Origin: a virus
Lineage: Duplodnaviria; Heunggongvirae; Uroviricota; Caudoviricetes
IMG/VR virus record: IMGVR_UViG_2541047846_000002
Location: 1 to 36,057 of that record
DNA: 36,057 nucleotides
Direction: 5' to 3' (one strand)
Shown: in pieces, positions 2,940 to 11,628 of the stretch
How the letters are laid out: each line of letters opens with the position of its first letter
Position numbering within the stretch: the stretch's first letter is position 1
The notes under the pieces: model-generated
Database searches by the model: none
Seen by the model: only the letters and a program-made list of their open reading frames with translations
What the model was told of the DNA's origin: nothing
Made by a program: the position numbers and the translations under genes

Positions 2940-3821
2940 TTAATTCGAAATGATTGTGCTTCTTATGCATGCAACTACCTCGATATCAGAAAATGCACAT
3001 TCAAAGTAAGTTTCTTTACTTCTGATATTTATCATACCTTTAGGTAGCCTAGTAATTTGTCTGACGGAATAGGTTCCATCAATATTAATTAACCAGTATC
3101 CATCTAATACATCAGAAAATTTCTGATCACAGATGTATGCCACTAAACCATCCTGAACGACAATTGGTGCTGAAAGATTAGCGGGTAAAAATGACGAATC
3201 GAAAATATATGAGCCACTCTCAACCATTTTGCCTGCATTGAGATGAAATTTAGGCAGTTCTTTTACCGATGTTGTGAGAGCATTGTGCTCGCTGCCTTGT
3301 CCAGTGGCTAGCCATAAAAGAGAATTTCCTGTTTCCAACGAACATTTTATGATCCAATCAGCCGGGAATGTGTCTCGCAAATATCTATTTGCCATAGTGC
3401 TTTTAGATACATTCAGATGGTCGGCAAGTTCTTGTCTTGTTTTAAAGCCATACGCTTTCATTAGCCTGTCTATTGCATCACGTCCGCCTGAGTCCAAATT
3501 CAGATCGTTCCCAATTGGGGACTTCAGGGTGGTGGCTTGGGAAACGTGCTGAACCTTTGATGCAGTTGCCTTTGACATGACCGGAGCCTCAGTACTCTGA
3601 GGGAATGGTACGCCTTTTCCGAATGAGAGCCACTCGATAGATGCACCCGTTTCAATTGCACACTGAATTACCCAGTCAGCAGGAAATACGTCACGCATCC
3701 AGCGCGTGCCCATAGTGCTTGCAGATACGTTGAACTGTTCGCACAGAGCTTGCCTTGTCTTGAATCCATACGCTTCAAGCATGCGCGTTATGACTGCTTG
3801 TCCTCCGTTTTTGAAATTCAT
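2940..3821 (-). CDS. cI: CI-type immunity repressor (186 CI family) with tandemly duplicated N-terminal HTH domain
   Basis: Two consecutive ~60-aa repeats (MLEAYGFKTRQALCEQFNVSASTMGTRWMRDVFPADWVIQCAIETGASIEWL / LMKAYGFKTRQELADHLNVSKSTMANRYLRDTFPADWIIKCSLETGNSLLWL) followed by a C-terminal domain; divergent from apl/cox. Confidence 0.8.
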   Translation of the reverse strand: MNFKNGGQAVITRMLEAYGFKTRQALCEQFNVSASTMGTRWMRDVFPADWVIQCAIETGASIEWLSFGKGVPFPQSTEAPVMSKATASKVQHVSQATTLKSPIGNDLNLDSGGRDAIDRLMKAYGFKTRQELADHLNVSKSTMANRYLRDTFPADWIIKCSLETGNSLLWLATGQGSEHNALTTSVKELPKFHLNAGKMVESGSYIFDSSFLPANLSAPIVVQDGLVAYICDQKFSDVLDGYWLINIDGTYSVRQITRLPKGMINIRSKETYFECAFSDIEVVACIRSTIISN

Positions 3822-3847
3822 TTATTACGCCTTTGAGTAATTTTTGG

Positions 3848-3876
3848 TTGACACTTCTCAAATGAAGAATTAGTGT
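3848..3876 (+). promoter_or_regulatory. Candidate sigma70 early (lytic) promoter in the cI/apl switch region: TTGACA-N17-TAGTGT
   Basis: TTGACA at 3848-3853, 17-nt spacer, TAGTGT at 3871-3876, upstream of apl/cox start. Confidence 0.35.
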
Positions 3877-3946
3877 GTGCGAAAGTGAACTGAACAGGAT
3901 TAATCACCAGTTACCACACATCTTGTTAAACGAGGAATCTTGCATC

Positions 3947-4168
3947 ATGGCTCCACATATTTCAATCACCTTAGCTGTCCCATCTGTTTCTATTGAGAAA
4001 TACAGTGAACTGACTGGGTTATCTATCGATACTATCAATGACATGCTGGCTGATGGACGCCTTATTCGCCATCGTCTCCGTAAAGATAAAAAGCGAGAAA
4101 AGGTAATGATCAATATCGCAGCAATGACCGTTGATGCGCTCTCTGAATGCAATTTGAGTATTAACTAG
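3947..4168 (+). CDS. apl: Apl/Cox-type excisionase / transcriptional regulator
   Basis: 73-aa ORF from internal ATG with RBS (GAGGAA) 9 nt upstream; first gene of the rightward early operon, divergent from cI as in P2/186. ORF-track start at 3875 probably too far upstream. Confidence 0.6.
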   Translation: MAPHISITLAVPSVSIEKYSELTGLSIDTINDMLADGRLIRHRLRKDKKREKVMINIAAMTVDALSECNLSIN

Positions 4169-4200
4169 TTCCATTTTGGGATACATCAGGGGTGTCGACT

Positions 4201-4710
4201 ATGTTTGATTACCAAGTTTCCAAACATCCACATTTTGATGAAGCCTGTCGAGTATTCGCACTGCGCCACAACCTGGTGCAACTGGCAGAACGTGCAGGCA
4301 TGAATGTGCAGATTCTGCGGAACAAGCTGAACCCAGCTCAACCTCATTTATTAACCGCACCAGATATCTGGCTACTTACCGATCTGACTGAAGATTCAAC
4401 GCTGGTAGACGGTTTTCTGGCACAGATTCATTGTCTGCCATGTGTACCGATTAATGAGGTGGCAAAAGAGAAACTGCCACATTACGTCATGAGTGCAACC
4501 GCAGAGATCGGGCGTGTTGCTGCAGGTGCGGTATCTGGCGATGTAAAAACCAGTGCAGGCCGTCGTGAAGCTATCAGCAGCATTAACTCTGTAACACGAC
4601 TGATGGCGTTGGCCGCTGTTTCATTGCAGGCCCGTTTACAGGCTAACCCTGCGATGGCGAGTGCAGTTGATACCGTGACTGGCCTCGGTGCTTCATTCGG
4701 TTTGCTGTGA
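4201..4710 (+). CDS. cII: Phage regulatory protein CII (186 CII / CP76 family)
   Basis: 169-aa product from ATG 4201, the size of 186 CII; sequence recalled as closely similar ([17 protein letters not shown]...[27 protein letters not shown]). Confidence 0.8.
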
Positions 4711-4717
4711 GGTGCTT

Positions 4718-4918
4718 ATGCTGACGAAAGAACCATCATTTGCATCGCTGCTGGTAAAACAAAGTCCGGCAATGCACTACGGTCACGGCTGGATCATGGG
4801 TGAGGATGGTAAACGCTGGCATCCGTGCCGTTCACAAGATGAATTGCTGGCAGAACTATCAACGAATAAACGGGGGAACAAATGGCTATTGAAGGCGCTG
4901 CGGCGACTGTTCCATTAA
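4718..4918 (+). CDS. Small early-region protein (hypothetical; Fil-position)
   Basis: ORF with in-frame ATG at 4718 preceded by GAGGTG; synteny with 186 early operon. Confidence 0.4.
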   Translation: MLTKEPSFASLLVKQSPAMHYGHGWIMGEDGKRWHPCRSQDELLAELSTNKRGNKWLLKALRRLFH

Positions 4919-5751: not shown

Positions 5752-6605
5752 GCACCATCCTGAAATGGGCGGGAAATAAAACCGCCATTATGTCCGAACT
5801 GAAAAAACATCTTCCTGCTGGCCCGCGACTGGTTGAACCTTTCGCGGGTTCCTGTGCTGTGATGATGGAGACGGATTACCCCAGCTATCTTGTTGCGGAT
5901 ATTAATCCTGATTTAATCAACCTCTATAAAAAGGTTGCTGCTGATTGCGAGGCGTTTATATCTCGTGCCAGAGCTTTATTTGAGGAAGCAAACAGGGAGG
6001 TGGCTTATTACAACATAAGGCAGGAGTTTAATTACTCCACTGAAATTACTGATTTCATGAAAGCGGTATATTTCCTGTATCTCAATCGTCACGGTTACCG
6101 TGGTTTATGTCGCTATAACAAGAGCGGGCATTTCAACATTCCCTACGGTAATTATAAAAATCCGTATTTCCCTGAAAAAGAACTTCGCACATTTGCAGAA
6201 AAAGCCCAGCGAGCAACGTTTATCTGCGCCAGATTTGATGAAACGCTGGCGATGTTGAAGGCGGGAGATGTGGTGTATTGCGATCCGCCGTATGACGGTA
6301 CGTTTTCCGGCTATCACACTGATGGTTTCACTGAAGATGACCAGTATCACCTGGCATCCGTTCTTGAACATCGGTCATCAGAAGGACATCCGATCATTGT
6401 TTCTAACAGTGACACATCCCTGATCCGTTCGCTGTATCGCAATTTTACTCACCACTATATCAAGGTAAAACGCAGCATCGGTGTGGCAGCTGGCGAGGGT
6501 AAATCAGCAACAGAAATCATTGCTGTTTCCGGGCCGCGCTGCTGGATGGGATTTGATTATTCGCGTGGCGTGGATAGTTCTGCCGTGTACGGAGTACGTG
6601 CATGA
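5748..6605 (+). CDS. dam: DNA adenine (N6) methyltransferase, Dam-like
   Basis: Motifs FAGSCAV (AdoMet binding) and DPPY (catalytic); start ATG 5748 overlaps upstream stop (ATGA) and GGAGG RBS; ORF-track start at 5688 is upstream of the likely true start. Confidence 0.85.
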
Positions 6606-9016
6606 GTCATGCCGATATAAACAACTGCTGCGGCTTTAACGAGGCTGCCGCAGCGTTCTCATGGAACAGCCCGAAAAAGGCCATTAACCCTTATCTGGAC
6701 CCGGCGGAAGTTGCGCCGGTTTCTACGCTTTCAAACCTGATCACTCTGTACGCTGCCGATAACGAGCAGGAACAGTTGCGCCGCGAGGCACTGAGTGATC
6801 AGGTCTGGGAGCGTTATTTCTTTAATGAATCCCGTGATCCTGTCCAGCGCGAAACGGAGCAGGATAAGCTCATTAGCCGGGCAAAGCTGGCGCATGAGCA
6901 GCAGCGTTTTAATCCGGATATGGTCATTCTGGCGGACGTCAACGCCCAGCCTTCCCATATCAGCAAGCCGCTGATACAACGTATTGAATACTTCAGCAGC
7001 CTGGACAGGCCAAAGGCTTATTCCCGCTATTTACGTGAGACGATTAAGCCATGTCTGGAACGACTGGAGCATGTACGCGACAGTCAGCTATCTGCATCTT
7101 TTCGCTTTATGGCAAGCCAAGAAGGGCTGGACGGCCTGCTGATCCTGCCTGAAATGAGTCAGGATCAGGTGAAACGCCTGTCCACCCTGGTAGCTGCGCA
7201 TATGAGTATGTGCCTTGATGCAGCTTGTGGTGATTTGTATGCCACCGATGACGTTAAGCCAGAAGAAATCCGCAAGACATGGGAAAAGGTGGCAGCGGAA
7301 ACCCTGCGTCTGGATGTCATCCCGCCTGCGTTTGAGCAACTCCGCCGGAAAAGAAACCGCCGTAAACCCGTGCCCTATGAACTCATTCCTGGTTCGCTGG
7401 CGCGTATGTTGTGCGCCGACTGGTGGTATCGGAAATTATGGAAGATGCGTTGCGAATGGCGGGAAGAGCAGTTGCGTGCTGTCTGCCTTGTCAGCAAAAA
7501 AGCATCTCCCTATGTCAGCTATGAAGCCGTGATGCATAAACGTGAGCAGCGCCGTAAGTCGCTGGAGTTTTTCCGTTCTCATGAACTAGTGAACGAAGAC
7601 GGCGACACGCTGGACATGGAGGATGTGGTAAACGCCAGCAGCAGCAACCCTGCGCATCGCCGCAATGAGATGATGGCCTGTGTTAAAGGTCTGGAGCTTA
7701 TCGCGGAAATGCGTGGCGACTGCGCCGTTTTCTACACCATCACCTGTCCGTCACGTTTCCATTCCACGCTAAATAACGGCAGGCCCAACCCGACCTGGAC
7801 AAATGCGACGGTAAGACAAAGCAGTGATTATCTGGTCGGCATGTTTGCTGCATTTCGTAAGGCGATGCACAAAGCCGGATTGCGCTGGTATGGCGTGCGA
7901 GTGGCTGAGCCGCATCATGACGGCACAGTTCACTGGCACCTGTTGTGTTTTATGCGCAAAAAAGACCGCCGCGCCATTACTGCTTTGTTGCGTAAGTTTG
8001 CCATTCGTGAAGACCGCGAGGAGCTGGGTAATAACACGGGGCCACGCTTTAAGTCTGAGCTGATAAACCCGCGCAAAGGAACGCCGACAAGCTACATCGC
8101 GAAATATATCAGCAAGAACATTGACGGGCGTGGTCTGGCTGGCGAGATCAGCAAGGAAACGGGTAAATCTCTGCGTGATAACGCTGAATACGTGAATGCC
8201 TGGGCGTCTTTGCATCGTGTTCAGCAATTCCGCTTCTTTGGTATTCCGGGACGTCAGGCTTACCGTGAACTTCGCTTGCTGGCTGGTCAGGCGGCAAGGC
8301 AACAGGGTGACAAAAAAGCAGGTGCGCCGGTACTGGATAACCCGCGTCTTGATGCCATTCTGGCTGCTGCTGATGCAGGTTGTTTTGCCACCTACATCAT
8401 GAAGCAGGGCGGCGTACTGGTTCCCCGTAAATATCACCTCATCAGAACCGCTTATGAAATCAACGAAGAGCCGACCGCCTATGGCGATCACGGTATTCGT
8501 ATTTATGGCATCTGGTCACCCATTGCAGAGGGCAAGATCTGCACTCATGCAGTGAAGTGGAAAATGGTTCGTAAAGCCGTTGACGTTCAGGAGGCGGCAG
8601 CCGACCAGGGCGCTTGCGCCCCTTGGACTCGTGGCAATAACTGTCCCCTTGCTGAAAATTTGAACCAACAAGGGAAAGACAAATCAGCTGATGGGGATAC
8701 CAGAACGGATATCACCCGCATGGATGACAAGGAGTTGCACGATTACCTGCACAGTATGAGCAAAAAAGAGCGCCGGGAACTGGCAGCAAAATTACGCATG
8801 GTTAAACCGAAACGGCGTAAAGACTACAAACAGCGAATTACAGAGTATCAGCGTCAGCAGCTCGTCTATGAACTGAAGTCCAGAGGATTTGATGGCAGCG
8901 AGAAAGAGGTCAATTTGCTCCTTCGCGGCGGCAGTATTCCGTCAGGAGCAGGCCTGCGTATCTTCTATCGGCACCAGCGTTTGCAGGAAGATGATAAGTG
9001 GCGAAACCTGTATTAA
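6602..9016 (+). CDS. A: Rolling-circle replication initiator, P2 gpA family
   Basis: 804-aa ORF; contains YIAKYISK-type active-site tyrosine motif; position after early genes; ATGA overlap with dam. Confidence 0.85.
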
Positions 9017-9108: not shown

Positions 9109-9128
9109 TACTGTAAATATAAACAGTG
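9109..9128 (+). promoter_or_regulatory. LexA (SOS) box TACTGTAAATATAAACAGTG
   Basis: CTGT-N8-ACAG at 9111-9126 with flanking TA/TG, about 40 bp upstream of the 9169 start; matches consensus TACTGTATATATATACAGTA at most positions. Confidence 0.6.
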
Positions 9129-9168
9129 GTTATGTATACAGTATTGCTTTGGTGTCATAGGAGGAAAG

Positions 9169-9357
9169 ATGCAGGACTATTTTTTGGAGTCTTTGAAGCT
9201 CCAGCGCATTGATTTTTTTCTTAAGCTTGTAGCGGCTAGTGAGTGTAGTGATGAAGAGAAGGGGCTGGCCCTGCAGTGGGTTTCTGAACTGACAGATGAA
9301 CTCATGGCAAAAATCAGAACCCACGAATACAACCGCTCAATGGATGTCATCAGCTGA
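9169..9357 (+). CDS. Small SOS-controlled protein, possible Tum-like antirepressor N-terminal module
   Basis: 62-aa ORF with strong RBS (AGGAGG) directly downstream of the LexA box; position equals tum in 186. Confidence 0.5.
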   Translation: MQDYFLESLKLQRIDFFLKLVAASECSDEEKGLALQWVSELTDELMAKIRTHEYNRSMDVIS

Positions 9358-9367
9358 GGTGACTTTT

Positions 9368-9601
9368 ATGCGCATTGAAATAATGATCGATAAAGAGCAG
9401 AAGATTAGCCAGTCTACCCTGGACGCCCTTGAATCCGAGCTTTACCGCAATCTGCGCCCCCTATATCCAAAAACGGTAATTCGCATCCGCAAAGGTAGCT
9501 CTAACGGTGTGGAACTGACCGGACTGCAACTGGACGAAGAAAGGAAGCAAGTGATGAAAATTATGCAGAAAGTGTGGGAAGACGACAGCTGGCTGCATTA
9601 A
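9368..9601 (+). CDS. DinI-family protein
   Basis: 77 aa, MRIEIMIDKEQ...ESELYRNL...KVWEDDSWL resembles E. coli DinI (MRIEVTIAK...ETWESADDW); GAGGTG RBS; ORF-track start at 9296 is upstream. Confidence 0.75.
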   Translation: MRIEIMIDKEQKISQSTLDALESELYRNLRPLYPKTVIRIRKGSSNGVELTGLQLDEERKQVMKIMQKVWEDDSWLH

Positions 9602-9976: not shown

Positions 9977-10891
9977 ATGCCATACCAATTGGTAGAGCTT
10001 AGCCCCGTAGCTAACGATCTTGAACAGTTAGGAACCAAAGAGAAGTTTTGGTTCTATTTCTCCGATGACACTGTAAATTTGCAGTTGTTTAAGTACTCTA
10101 GGCCAGGTACTGGCGAGCATTGGTCTGAAAAGTGTGCTGCTGAGTTATGTCATTTGCTTAACATTCCACATGCTAGCTATGATTTGGCGCGATACAATGG
10201 TCGATTCGGTGTGGTGACTCAGAATATCATTCCATCTGGTTTCCGGATGGTAATGGGAAATGAAGTGCTTCACAGTTCGACATTCGATTATCCTGGGCCT
10301 TTACAAGCCGGGGAAAAGCCGGTAAGGGTCAGAGAACACACTGTCACAAGGGTATTGGGTTGTTTGGATAGGGAATCTATCAAGCCTCCTCCGAGTGTAT
10401 ATGATCTAACCGGGCTAAATGCAGCAGATGTATTTTGTGGATATTTGATGCTCGATGCACTTGTGAGTAATCAAGATCGCCATCATGAAAATTGGGCGAT
10501 CATGCTTAACAATGAAACTGGTGAGCAGTTTTTGTGTCCAACATACGATCATGCCGCTAGTTTAGGAAGGGAGATGTTAGATGATGAGCGTAACGAACGG
10601 CTTAATACTAAAGATAAAAATCGACAAATCCCATGTTTTGTAAGAAAAGCTCGCTCTGAGCTATTCAAAGCAAAAACTGATAAAAAGCCCTTGCTGACCG
10701 TTGAAGCATTTCAACATGCAGTTGAAGGGAGAGTTGCCGCTCGCGACCATTGGTTAGGTAAGTTGAGCGTTTTAACAGAAGATTCCATTACAGATGTGTT
10801 TAACCAAGTGCCTTCATCGTGTATATCCGACAGTGCACGTAGATTTGCAACGTTAATGGTAATGGAAAATCGCAGAAGGTTACTAGAATGA
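9977..10891 (+). CDS. HipA/HipT-like (PI3/4-kinase-fold) Ser/Thr kinase core domain protein
   Basis: 304 aa; P-loop-like GTKEKF (aa 19-24) and catalytic loop SNQDRHHEN (N-x-D-x-H-x-x-N, aa 165-172) separated by ~145 aa as in HipA; lacks the HipA N-terminal subdomain; stop overlaps downstream start (ATGA). Confidence 0.6.
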   Translation: MPYQLVELSPVANDLEQLGTKEKFWFYFSDDTVNLQLFKYSRPGTGEHWSEKCAAELCHLLNIPHASYDLARYNGRFGVVTQNIIPSGFRMVMGNEVLHSSTFDYPGPLQAGEKPVRVREHTVTRVLGCLDRESIKPPPSVYDLTGLNAADVFCGYLMLDALVSNQDRHHENWAIMLNNETGEQFLCPTYDHAASLGREMLDDERNERLNTKDKNRQIPCFVRKARSELFKAKTDKKPLLTVEAFQHAVEGRVAARDHWLGKLSVLTEDSITDVFNQVPSSCISDSARRFATLMVMENRRRLLE

Positions 10892-11628
10892 CTAATACAA
10901 ACTCCGTTTACGTCGCATGGCAGGCACCAGATACCAGAGACTGGCATGTTGTTGGTAACTTGCAAGAGCGCAAATCGGGGTATGTTTTCAGGTATACCAA
11001 AGGTGCTCTTAAATCTACTAAATTTACAAAGTTTAGCGGCATGAGTGATGTTCGTGAAACTTATGTTTCGGAAGAATTGTTTCCTCTTTTTAAAAATCGC
11101 CTTTTATCACCGAGACGTCCAGAGTATCCGAGTTTCATTAAATGGCTTGGATTTGAAGAAGATAAGGTAAATCCTATCGATATTCTTGCTCGCTCGGGAG
11201 GCTTACGAAGCACTGATCAGCTGCAGATTTTCAAAAAAATTGATGTTGATTCTGATGGTAACTTTGAGCATTTTTTCTTCTTACATGGACTTGGTTACTT
11301 AAATAGCTTAGCTAATGCTCGTGTATCTGAATTGAAACCGGGGCAAATTTTGCGTCTTTGCTTGGATCTTCAAAATGAATACGATGGGGATGCTGTTGTC
11401 GTTCGTGCAGATAAACCAGCTGAAATCGTTGGTTACTGCCCTAGGTATTTAAGTAATGATATCAAGAAGATGTTATTGGATGATCCAAAATCAATCACTT
11501 TAACGGTCGAAAAGATTAGCGATGATGCTCCTCATAACTATCGGTTATTATGTAAATTATCAGGAGTACTAAGCCAAGCCTGTCAATCGACGCTGATTCC
11601 TCAGGATGAGTTTGAACCTATTGAGTAA
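10888..11628 (+). CDS. Two-domain protein: N-terminal region tentatively resembling the HipA N-terminal (HipS-like) domain, C-terminal HIRAN-like domain
   Basis: 246 aa; C-terminal LRLCLDLQNEYDGDAVVVRADKPAEIVGYCPRYLSNDI matches the HIRAN pattern (L.REP.N.YD.NAI.V...GY.pr); N-terminal GYVFRY...ELFPLFKNRLLSPRR loosely resembles HipA N-domain motifs. Confidence 0.55.
   Translation: MTNTNSVYVAWQAPDTRDWHVVGNLQERKSGYVFRYTKGALKSTKFTKFSGMSDVRETYVSEELFPLFKNRLLSPRRPEYPSFIKWLGFEEDKVNPIDILARSGGLRSTDQLQIFKKIDVDSDGNFEHFFFLHGLGYLNSLANARVSELKPGQILRLCLDLQNEYDGDAVVVRADKPAEIVGYCPRYLSNDIKKMLLDDPKSITLTVEKISDDAPHNYRLLCKLSGVLSQACQSTLIPQDEFEPIE

Follow-up and report, generated by a model that had tools for sequence, protein, structure and literature searches.

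A two-headed 186-type CI repressor in an Escherichia coli prophage, with sequence evidence for its fusion from two phage immunity types

How does a phage repressor come to carry two DNA-binding domains on one chain, and what could each of them read? The question is raised by a 36,057-nucleotide stretch of viral DNA (IMG/VR record IMGVR_UViG_2541047846_000002; the whole of this stretch is called the window here), a complete P2/186-like prophage integrated beside rcdA in Escherichia coli, whose cI gene encodes a genuine repressor of the coliphage 186 type with two helix-turn-helix (HTH) heads and a single C-terminal domain (CTD). The switch governed by 186 CI is among the few phage switches that are understood both structurally and quantitatively, with a 14-mer wheel that wraps the lytic promoter pR and loops to distal sites. 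A two-headed version of this repressor therefore raises the questions of whether separate sets of heads could serve proximal and distal sites on one wheel, whether a lysogen could be immune to two groups of phages, and whether new immunity types can arise by the capture of domains rather than by point mutation. Literature searches returned no description of a tandem-head 186-type CI, and none was reported in a comparison of 18 P2-like CIs (Nilsson & Haggard-Ljungquist, 2011). The arrangement is nonetheless common among prophages of enterobacteria, and genes of this kind carry the plain label "phage repressor protein CI" in E. coli, in inducible Klebsiella prophages and in other genera, which matters for annotation and for the prediction of immunity groups. 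Sequence comparison indicates that the two-headed variant of this well-known repressor is real and well supported, and documents its origin by fusion, leaving the known mechanism in place; it is of interest to specialists of phage switches and would surprise them.

Two heads on one C-terminal domain

A preliminary description of the locus, drawn from the letters alone, had read the 293-aa product as two related HTH modules followed by one C-terminal domain, and this reading holds. A Pfam search finds Phage_CI_repr (PF07022) twice in the protein (two stretches, whole-protein E-value 4.6e-59) and Phage_CI_C (PF16452) once (E 1.2e-25). The self-alignment that the same description had proposed, carried out with BLASTP on the N-terminal 106 aa against the remainder of CI, gives a significant internal repeat of 38 identities in 70 positions (54%, E 1e-31). 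The repeat is visible in the DNA as well, as had been claimed: the two head-coding segments, offset by 318 nt, are 61% identical without gaps (25% ± 3% in shuffles), and blastn aligns them at 68% over 130 nt (E 4e-11). Comparison with 186 CI, likewise proposed there, shows that the 186 protein (PDB 2FJR) aligns to aa 114–284 only, that is, to the second head and the C-terminal domain.

AlphaFold2 models both heads as confident five-helix bundles, with a predicted local distance difference test score (pLDDT) of about 90, and the C-terminal domain as a confident, beta-rich fold, and leaves linker residues 75–105 disordered (pLDDT 23–27); the overall predicted template modelling score of 0.54 fits a picture of heads on a flexible tether. 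By Foldseek, the modelled C-terminal domain superimposes on that of 186 (PDB 2FKD) with a TM score of 0.93 and a root-mean-square deviation of 1.2 Å, and shows only a distant resemblance of fold to the CTDs of LexA (E 5e-6, 8–15% identity). No S24 peptidase family is found in CI at E ≤ 1 in the Pfam search. In its PF07022 head, its PF16452 domain with the 186 CTD fold and its position in the switch the protein agrees with 186-type CIs. All characterised members of this group have one head per subunit, whereas the present CI has two, and it is thus to be regarded as a variant of the 186-type repressor.

Selection on the two heads was gauged from the ratio of nonsynonymous to synonymous substitution rates (dN/dS) between the window cI and two diverged homologues of the same architecture, at loci L091 and L094 (dS about 0.3–0.4 in the heads). 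The ratios, given for L091 and L094 respectively, are 0.019 and 0.017 in head 1, 0.00 and 0.16 in head 2, 0.40 and 0.52 in the linker, and 0.32 and 0.36 in the CTD. These values indicate that both heads are under strong purifying selection, with the linker relaxed, and that neither head is a decaying remnant.

Origin of the two heads

The heads were set against all those of about 200 loci and 120 cluster representatives. A lineage of 206-aa CIs (P0113, P0099 and P0100) has a single head that is 88% identical to head 1 and carries the same recognition helix, STMGTRWMRD. Head 2 shows 80% identity to the single heads of another lineage (P0098, P0088 and P0090) and is close to the type found in phages vB_EcoM-813R9 and KP12, where the helix reads SKSTLANRYLRD against SKSTMANRYLRD in the window. 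In the same comparison, the two heads of the window CI are only 54–56% identical to each other. The mosaic extends into the neighbouring DNA. Positions 3613–4276, which span head 1, the entire cI-apl spacer and apl, are 71% identical to a P0113-type prophage (L007) that occupies the same attachment site as the window prophage; positions 2940–3457, which encode head 2 from aa 122 and the CTD, are 75% identical to the cI genes of 813R9 and KP12; and positions 3933–4884 (apl, cII and fil) are 88–91% identical to 813R9, KP12 and the Klebsiella phage 4LV2017.

The DNA of the inter-head linker preserves the features of a former promoter region. In single-head phages of the P0005 and P0090 types, the −35 hexamer of pR overlaps the start codon of cI (TTGACAT) and operator sequences lie within the first 10–15 cI codons. 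The same TTGACAT persists in the window linker, where the ancestral start codon has become the internal Met82 (codon 3576–3578), preceded on the coding strand by GAGG at a distance of 8 nt; this methionine is absent from the P0003-type homologue. From Met82 onward, the linker peptide MS[KAT]ASK[VQHVSQATTLK]SPIGN corresponds to the N-terminus MSTSKYPIGD of P0090 and P0098, enlarged by two insertions (9 and 33 nt) that keep the frame. The operator GTCCCCAATTGGGTAC, located just upstream of the pR −35 in P0090-type phages, persists as its positional homologue GTTCCCAATTGGGGAC in the window. A resemblance of the former −10 region CCTAGTATCTG to CCTCAGTACTCTG, now linker-coding, was seen by eye and is given little weight. 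The linker DNA over the ancestral −10 region also contains a perfect 6-bp inverted repeat, CCTCAG-TACT-CTGAGG (3587–3602), of which 5/6 is conserved in L091 and less in L094.

Taken with the mosaic DNA, the start codon, −35 hexamer and operator that survive as relics within the linker indicate that the heads were fused from two immunity groups; alignment to P0090/P0098-type loci traces the linker itself to what used to be the pR region and the first codons of a single-head cI. In the proposed event, a recombination between heteroimmune 186-like phages would have placed a P0113-type 5' module (pL and pR, operator, head 1 and the first linker residues) ahead of a complete P0090/813R9-type cI, joined in frame at the end nearest its promoter, so that the former pR region and start codon came to be read through as a flexible linker some 40 residues long. 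A relic promoter and start codon kept as a protein linker are a clear case of regulatory DNA turned coding.

The preliminary description had instead taken the repeat for an in-place tandem duplication. On such an account both heads would read the same half-site, and the gain would lie in doubled valency or in a changed spacing of half-sites at pR. Related heads do stand in tandem, and their DNA is similar (61–68%), but each of them is far closer to the single head of a different lineage than to its partner, and the two have unlike recognition helices. Fusion is favoured by the breakpoints of the mosaic and by the remains of a start codon and promoter within the linker, and positions 3822–3946 yielded no additional repeated or paired half-sites; an in-place duplication appears very improbable, and is already largely refuted by the domain identities. 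Even closer to negligible is the chance that sequencing, assembly or annotation has artificially fused two ORFs, a concern that the preliminary description had itself raised. One frameshifted copy in a metagenome assembly (P0123) could be cited for it, but the recurrence of the intact frame already refutes it: the frame is a single coding sequence (CDS) at ≥99% identity in 12 complete genomes of E. coli isolated in various countries from dog, deer, goat, human and water, and it recurs in IMG/VR contigs. To this are added the presence of a window-type junction in 31 of 5,426 complete E. coli genomes, and the two-head architecture of divergent homologues. P0123 itself is a metagenome protein of 114 aa that copies head 1 of the window and is frameshifted right after Met82-Ser-Lys, by an assembly error or as an inactivated allele.

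Tandem-head CIs are not confined to this lineage. They make up 47 of 122 sequences (the top 120 clusters at 90% identity, the window CI and 186 CI), fall into at least 10 clusters at 50% identity (10 of the 10 tested), and have named members in Edwardsiella, Hafnia, Enterobacter, Citrobacter and Shewanella. Among complete E. coli genomes a further junction, type c, is the commoner one (215 of 5,426), which brings tandem-head CIs to about 4.5% (215 + 31 of 5,426), and type c also occurs in the Klebsiella phages 4LV2017 and ST437-OXA245phi4.2. A scan of genome contigs of GTDB species representatives yielded mostly single-head CIs (tandem at 2 of the 75 loci analysed), and the tandem loci for comparison were accordingly taken from IMG/VR. 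In no tandem protein are the two heads each other's nearest relatives (45–68% identical). Head 2 is always close to some single-head CI (76–95% identical); head 1 is so in the window type (88%) and the Edwardsiella type (83–85%) but not in type c (62–73%), a pattern which suggests that heads have been captured repeatedly. The head 1 of type c forms a clade of its own, with an almost invariant helix ISQSTMANRYARD and a 20-aa N-terminal extension. At type c loci (L005, L014, L113–L150 and 4LV2017) the −35 of pR and the ATG of cI overlap, and around pR the CCCAATTGGG palindrome known from single-head relatives has given way to conserved elements that contain TGTGA.

Operators and the proposed division of labour

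The promoters of the switch were placed by homology, since a generic promoter and terminator scan called neither pR nor the facing lysogenic promoter pL. The pR hexamers align with those of P0113-type phages and with the annotated 186 pR, and a putative pL is assigned because its hexamers lie 10 and 33 nt from the apl ATG, the offsets of the annotated 186 pL. Operators were predicted with position weight matrices (PWMs) trained on single-head phages alone, with no sites from the window, the head-1 matrix being trained on the P0113 family. Among single-head phages, the two classes of operator are mutually exclusive: the P0113 family has ACTT(T)C..N..G(A)AAGT palindromes in the pR spacer, and the P0005 and P0090 types have GTNCCCAWTTGGGNAC palindromes flanking pR. 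On phage ESSI2_ev129, which lies outside the training set, the head-1 matrix finds its best match in the 31-kb genome within the cI-apl spacer.

In the window, each matrix selects one site. The best head-1 match in the 36 kb is ACTTCTCAAATGAAGAAT (19.8 bits, against a shuffle maximum of 17.7), a CTTC-N6-GAAG palindrome that occurs once in the window, exactly between the −35 and −10 hexamers of pR. It is invariant in L090, L091 and L094, and its position is homologous to that of ACTTTCCAAATGGAAAGT in P0113-type phages and of ATCTCTCAATTGGGAGAT in the 186 pR spacer. The head-2 matrix singles out GTTCCCAATTGGGGAC, inside cI, at 24.3 bits, a score reached by none of 300 shuffles and followed by a runner-up of 9.5 bits; a search with the 813R9 operator at up to three mismatches returns the same palindrome as its sole match in the 36 kb (0.10 expected). 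Both arms of the pR operator are of head-1 type, no head-2-type half-site of at least 9.5 bits lies near pR, the PWM scan of positions 3700–4400 gives no head-2-type site above 1.3 bits, and the sole head-2-type sites are the two halves of the palindrome in cI. The matching repeated half-sites that the preliminary description had sought between cI and apl (3822–3946) were not found, that spacer holding the head-1-type operator only. Its suggestion that a second module could alter operator spacing or immunity survives in part: the extra head plausibly bears on immunity specificity.

The head-2-type element in the linker has a wider distribution. The sequence AAG-TNC-CCA-A (GTNCCCAA) is found in the linker DNA of many tandem cI genes and at the 5' end of single-head cI genes (the window palindrome, L014, L125 and L003 are examples), and its wobble bases are kept although the residue encoded there can be Y, S, F or N. 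This constancy suggests selection on the DNA itself, as if an operator half-site were being preserved within the gene. Elsewhere among tandem lineages, the element is reduced to half a palindrome (8–15 bits) or absent, and it is the top match in 14 of 29 loci, which represent homologous positions and hence do not count as independent evidence.

Several further candidates were considered around the switch. A site resembling FR, the second distal site of 186, lies between apl and cII (GTTCCATTTTGGGATA, 4168–4183) and was dropped at 1.3 bits with the head-2 matrix; TTGGGAAAC, which lies 22 bp from the palindrome and could be a half-site, was noticed only by eye and is not used; and a generic repeat search returned only short families with two copies each, GTGAACTGA (3884 and 4004) and ATAC..TGAACTG (3725 and 4000), that could not be tied to either head. 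Elsewhere in the window, the spacer between gene D and ogr (32895–32935) contains the fourth-best head-1 match, TCTTCGTAATAGAGAACT, which at 11.9 bits is not significant alone, and a look-alike, TTTTCAAAATGGAA, about 23 bp away, both just upstream of ogr. By analogy with pB in 186, CI may control the late activator ogr through this pair.

These assignments lead to the reading that we favour, to which we give a probability of about 0.6: a functional CI of dual specificity and fusion origin, with head 1 acting at pR and head 2 at the distal relic site. By homology with 186 CI, the C-terminal domain would build a 14-mer wheel from dimers. The outer heads (head 1) would bind CTTC-N6-GAAG within pR in pairs and turn the lytic operon off, and the shut-off of pR would relieve the facing pL. 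The inner heads (head 2), adjacent to the wheel as in 186, would keep their ancestral specificity for GTNCCCAWTTGGGNAC and occupy the relic operator about 340 bp away, which could serve as an FL-like distal anchor or loop without competing with pR for the same heads. In 186, one set of heads is shared among pR, FL and FR, and the wheel-DNA complex has a diameter of ~17.5 nm (PMC3675496); against this dimension, we estimate the contour of the 40-residue tether at up to about 14 nm, with which head 1 could reach DNA on or off the wheel. We infer a dual immunity as well: the lysogen would also repress superinfecting phages of the P0090/813R9 type, because head 2 still matches the operators flanking their pR, and the window pR, which lacks the ancestral operators, would escape the repressor of those phages.

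Induction would proceed through an SOS-controlled antirepressor and not by self-cleavage, as presumed from the lack of an S24 domain and from a LexA box ahead of Tum-like ORFs. The box, CTGTAAATATAAACAG, is a perfect CTGT-N8-ACAG and heads a putative operon of a 62-aa ORF (ORF62) and a DinI-like ORF. The latter matches the DinI family in Pfam (E 1.3e-22) and is 41% identical to aa 71–145 of 186 Tum, its C-terminal half; the N-terminal half of Tum has no homologue in the window, and ORF62 stands in its place. Among Klebsiella phages, ORF62 is 100% identical in KP12, which has a single head of head-2 type, and in 4LV2017, which has a type c tandem CI, and it is 49% identical to its LexA-controlled counterpart in the head-1-type phage ESSI2_ev129. 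The ORF62/DinI-like module is a candidate for the antirepressor that would inactivate this CI.

Several observations weigh against the dual-specificity reading. The assignment of heads to sites depends on homology and PWM scans, and linkage alone would carry pR along with the adjacent head 1. Only half of the distal palindrome is kept in the nearest relatives, where L091 and L006/L094 score 14.8 bits (24.3 in the window), and, lying in the coding DNA of SPIGN, it may be a decaying relic. The fusion account may not extend to all tandem CIs, as no single head is close to the head 1 of type c. The main hint against a model centred purely on head 1 comes from ORF62, whose allele appears to follow the type of head 2 or the backbone and not head 1; its identity in phages that share only these fits head 2 as the key regulatory head, and it may also simply reflect the shared backbone.

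The ORF62 allele, identical in KP12 and 4LV2017 and divergent in a head-1-type phage, is also an argument for assigning the switch to head 2, which would then act on its own promoters through weak or unrecognised sites and leave head 1 as an accessory, conferring immunity in trans against P0113-type phages or serving as a decoy or sensor for the antirepressor. Head 2 and the CTD do amount to a complete 186-like CI, and Met82, with GAGG upstream, could give rise to a single-head isoform. We consider this arrangement unlikely: P0113-type switches provide the homologues of pR and its spacer operator, which score with the head-1 matrix only, the region around them has no head-2-type site above the level given earlier, head 1 is under very strong purifying selection, and the loss of Met82 in the P0003-type homologue led us to set aside an internal start at this codon as the source of the main product. 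It is decidedly unlikely that one head does not bind DNA at all and acts as a spacer or as a module for protein interaction, for instance in dimerisation or in the geometry of the wheel. The poor conservation of the relic operator among close relatives would fit such a role, as would the weak dimerisation that the 186 N-terminal domain is said, after work by Shearwin and colleagues in 2002, to display. Both heads, however, have intact HTH motifs and are confidently folded, working single-head repressors have the same or nearly the same recognition helices, and dN/dS is 0.00–0.16.

A broader and more tentative idea is one that we regard as possible rather than probable. The stacking of heads could be a recurrent route to asymmetric change of immunity in 186-like phages. 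A phage that gained a head with its promoter cassette from a second immunity group, ahead of its own intact cI, would escape its ancestor's CI, as the ancestral operators are gone from its pR, and still repress both that ancestor, through the inner head, and the donor group, through the outer head, with a single 14-mer wheel whose separate sets of heads hold two DNA segments. The match between the putative antirepressor and the phage group of the inner head hints that induction may act via the inner head.

The surrounding prophage and comparison with known systems

The window prophage has the gene order int, two cargo ORFs, cI, apl, cII, fil, dam, the replication gene A, the structural genes and ogr (Table 1), with cI directed leftward toward int, opposite apl-cII, and the predicted pR and pL facing each other, the arrangement of the switch in 186.

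Table 1. Features of the window discussed in the text, with positions counted from its first nucleotide
Feature	Position	Strand	Description
int	1–1053	−	first gene of the window order
cI	2940–3821	−	293 aa; head 1, linker, head 2, C-terminal domain; open frame; RefSeq label "phage repressor protein CI"
C-terminal oligomerisation domain	2967–3257	−	aa 189–285; PF16452
Head 2 (NTD2)	3291–3488	−	aa 112–177, limits by custom HMM; recognition helix STMANRYLRD; P0090/813R9-type
Inter-head linker	3489–3608	−	aa 72–111, ~40 aa; predicted disordered
Head-2-type operator palindrome	3507–3522		GTTCCCAATTGGGGAC; predicted; inside cI (SPIGN codons), ~340 bp left of pR, at the position of 186 FL
Relic TTGACAT	3572–3578		ancestral pR −35 (3572–3577) overlapping ancestral cI start (Met82)
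Head 1 (NTD1)	3609–3806	−	aa 6–71, limits by custom HMM; recognition helix STMGTRWMRD; P0113-type
pR, lytic promoter	3848–3876	+	−35 TTGACA 3848–3853, 17-nt spacer, −10 TAGTGT 3871–3876; by alignment
Head-1-type operator	3853–3870		ACTTCTCAAATGAAGAAT; CTTC-N6-GAAG in pR spacer; predicted by PWM and homology
Putative pL, lysogenic promoter	3937–3965	−	faces pR; −10 CAAGAT 3937–3942, −35 TTGAAA 3960–3965
apl/cox-like	3947–4168	+	first gene of lytic operon; homologous CDS is Cox in 813R9; weak Phage_Cox match on L007 counterpart
cII	4192–4710	+	RefSeq "phage regulatory CII family protein"; 71% DNA identity to 186 cII
Replication gene A	6602–9016
Putative SOS operon	9111–9601	+	LexA box 9111–9126, 62-aa ORF 9169–9357, DinI-like ORF 9296–9601
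ogr	32951–33202		late activator

Between int and cI, two ORFs on the minus strand (1134–1664 and 1657–2859) have no Pfam match; they match PDC-M18B and PDC-M18A (E 5e-24 and 2e-36), which PADLOC lists together as candidate defence genes, and look like cargo in a P2-type hotspot. A second PADLOC candidate, PDC-M03A/B (E 2e-122 and 3e-93), is matched between the SOS operon and the portal gene by a weakly HipA_C-like ORF (9977–10891, plus strand) and a HIRAN-domain ORF (10888–11628, plus strand). In the tail-fibre region, an acyltransferase gene of the Acyl_transf_3 family (E 2.7e-40) occupies the opposite strand (24811–25842, minus strand) and may serve lysogenic conversion, for instance by acetylation of O-antigen.

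The closest known system is coliphage 186 itself (PDB 2FJR and 2FKD; Pinkett et al., 2006), whose wheel loops between pR, FL and FR (PMC3675496). The two share the Pfam domains of CI, the leftward cI beside apl-cII and upstream of int, and the lack of an S24 module. They also share, by prediction in the window, the facing pR and pL, an 18-bp palindromic operator in the pR spacer, a distal site in cI ~300 bp from pR and a putative LexA-controlled, Tum-like operon; in the annotated 186 record, FL and FR lie ~300 bp away from the pR-spacer palindrome, with FL inside cI at ~290 bp from pR. They differ in that 186 CI has one head per subunit, which recognises two operator types, whereas the window CI has two lineage-distinct heads on a 40-aa tether, a 14-mer of which would carry 28 heads, and the predicted proximal and distal operators belong to different sequence classes. 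The single-head CIs of P0113 type (E. coli prophages and ESSI2_ev129) are homologous to head 1 with its pR and pL, and those of P0090/P0005 type (813R9 and KP12) to head 2, the CTD and the apl-cII-fil backbone, each with a matching operator, but phages of either type have one head and one operator class, and the window has both. Type c and the other tandem CIs (Edwardsiella, Hafnia, Citrobacter and Shewanella) share the architecture of two PF07022 domains and one PF16452 domain, and a head 2 near single-head CIs; type c differs in its own head-1 clade and its pR region, and the window type is a separate and rarer lineage.

Outside the 186 group, the self-cleaving repressors LexA and lambda CI are set apart by the Peptidase_S24 catalytic domain that the window CI lacks. 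Covalently linked HTH heads are known from engineered single-chain 434 repressors (Simoncsits et al., 1997, as cited in PMC10096509). These proteins and a lambda-186 hybrid repressor (PDB 7JVT), with its head swapped on the 186 CTD, show that linked or exchanged heads are portable and that new specificities come from mixing them; they are laboratory constructs with short linkers and two heads on one operator, whereas the window CI has a long linker and predicted operator classes 340 bp apart, and pR does not present the adjacent half-sites, one for each head, of a single-chain HTH dimer. Phage regulators that combine two DNA-binding modules are also known from the Clostridioides difficile phage phiCDKH01_17, whose repressor has two XRE HTH domains (PMC11172241), in the mycobacteriophage TipsytheTRex, whose repressor binds an asymmetric site through an HTH and a second domain (PMC9283540), and in the Wolbachia prophage protein Wmk, with two HTH domains (PMC8555981). 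These proteins belong to unrelated families, with no wheel-forming CTD and no sign of heads drawn from two immunity groups.

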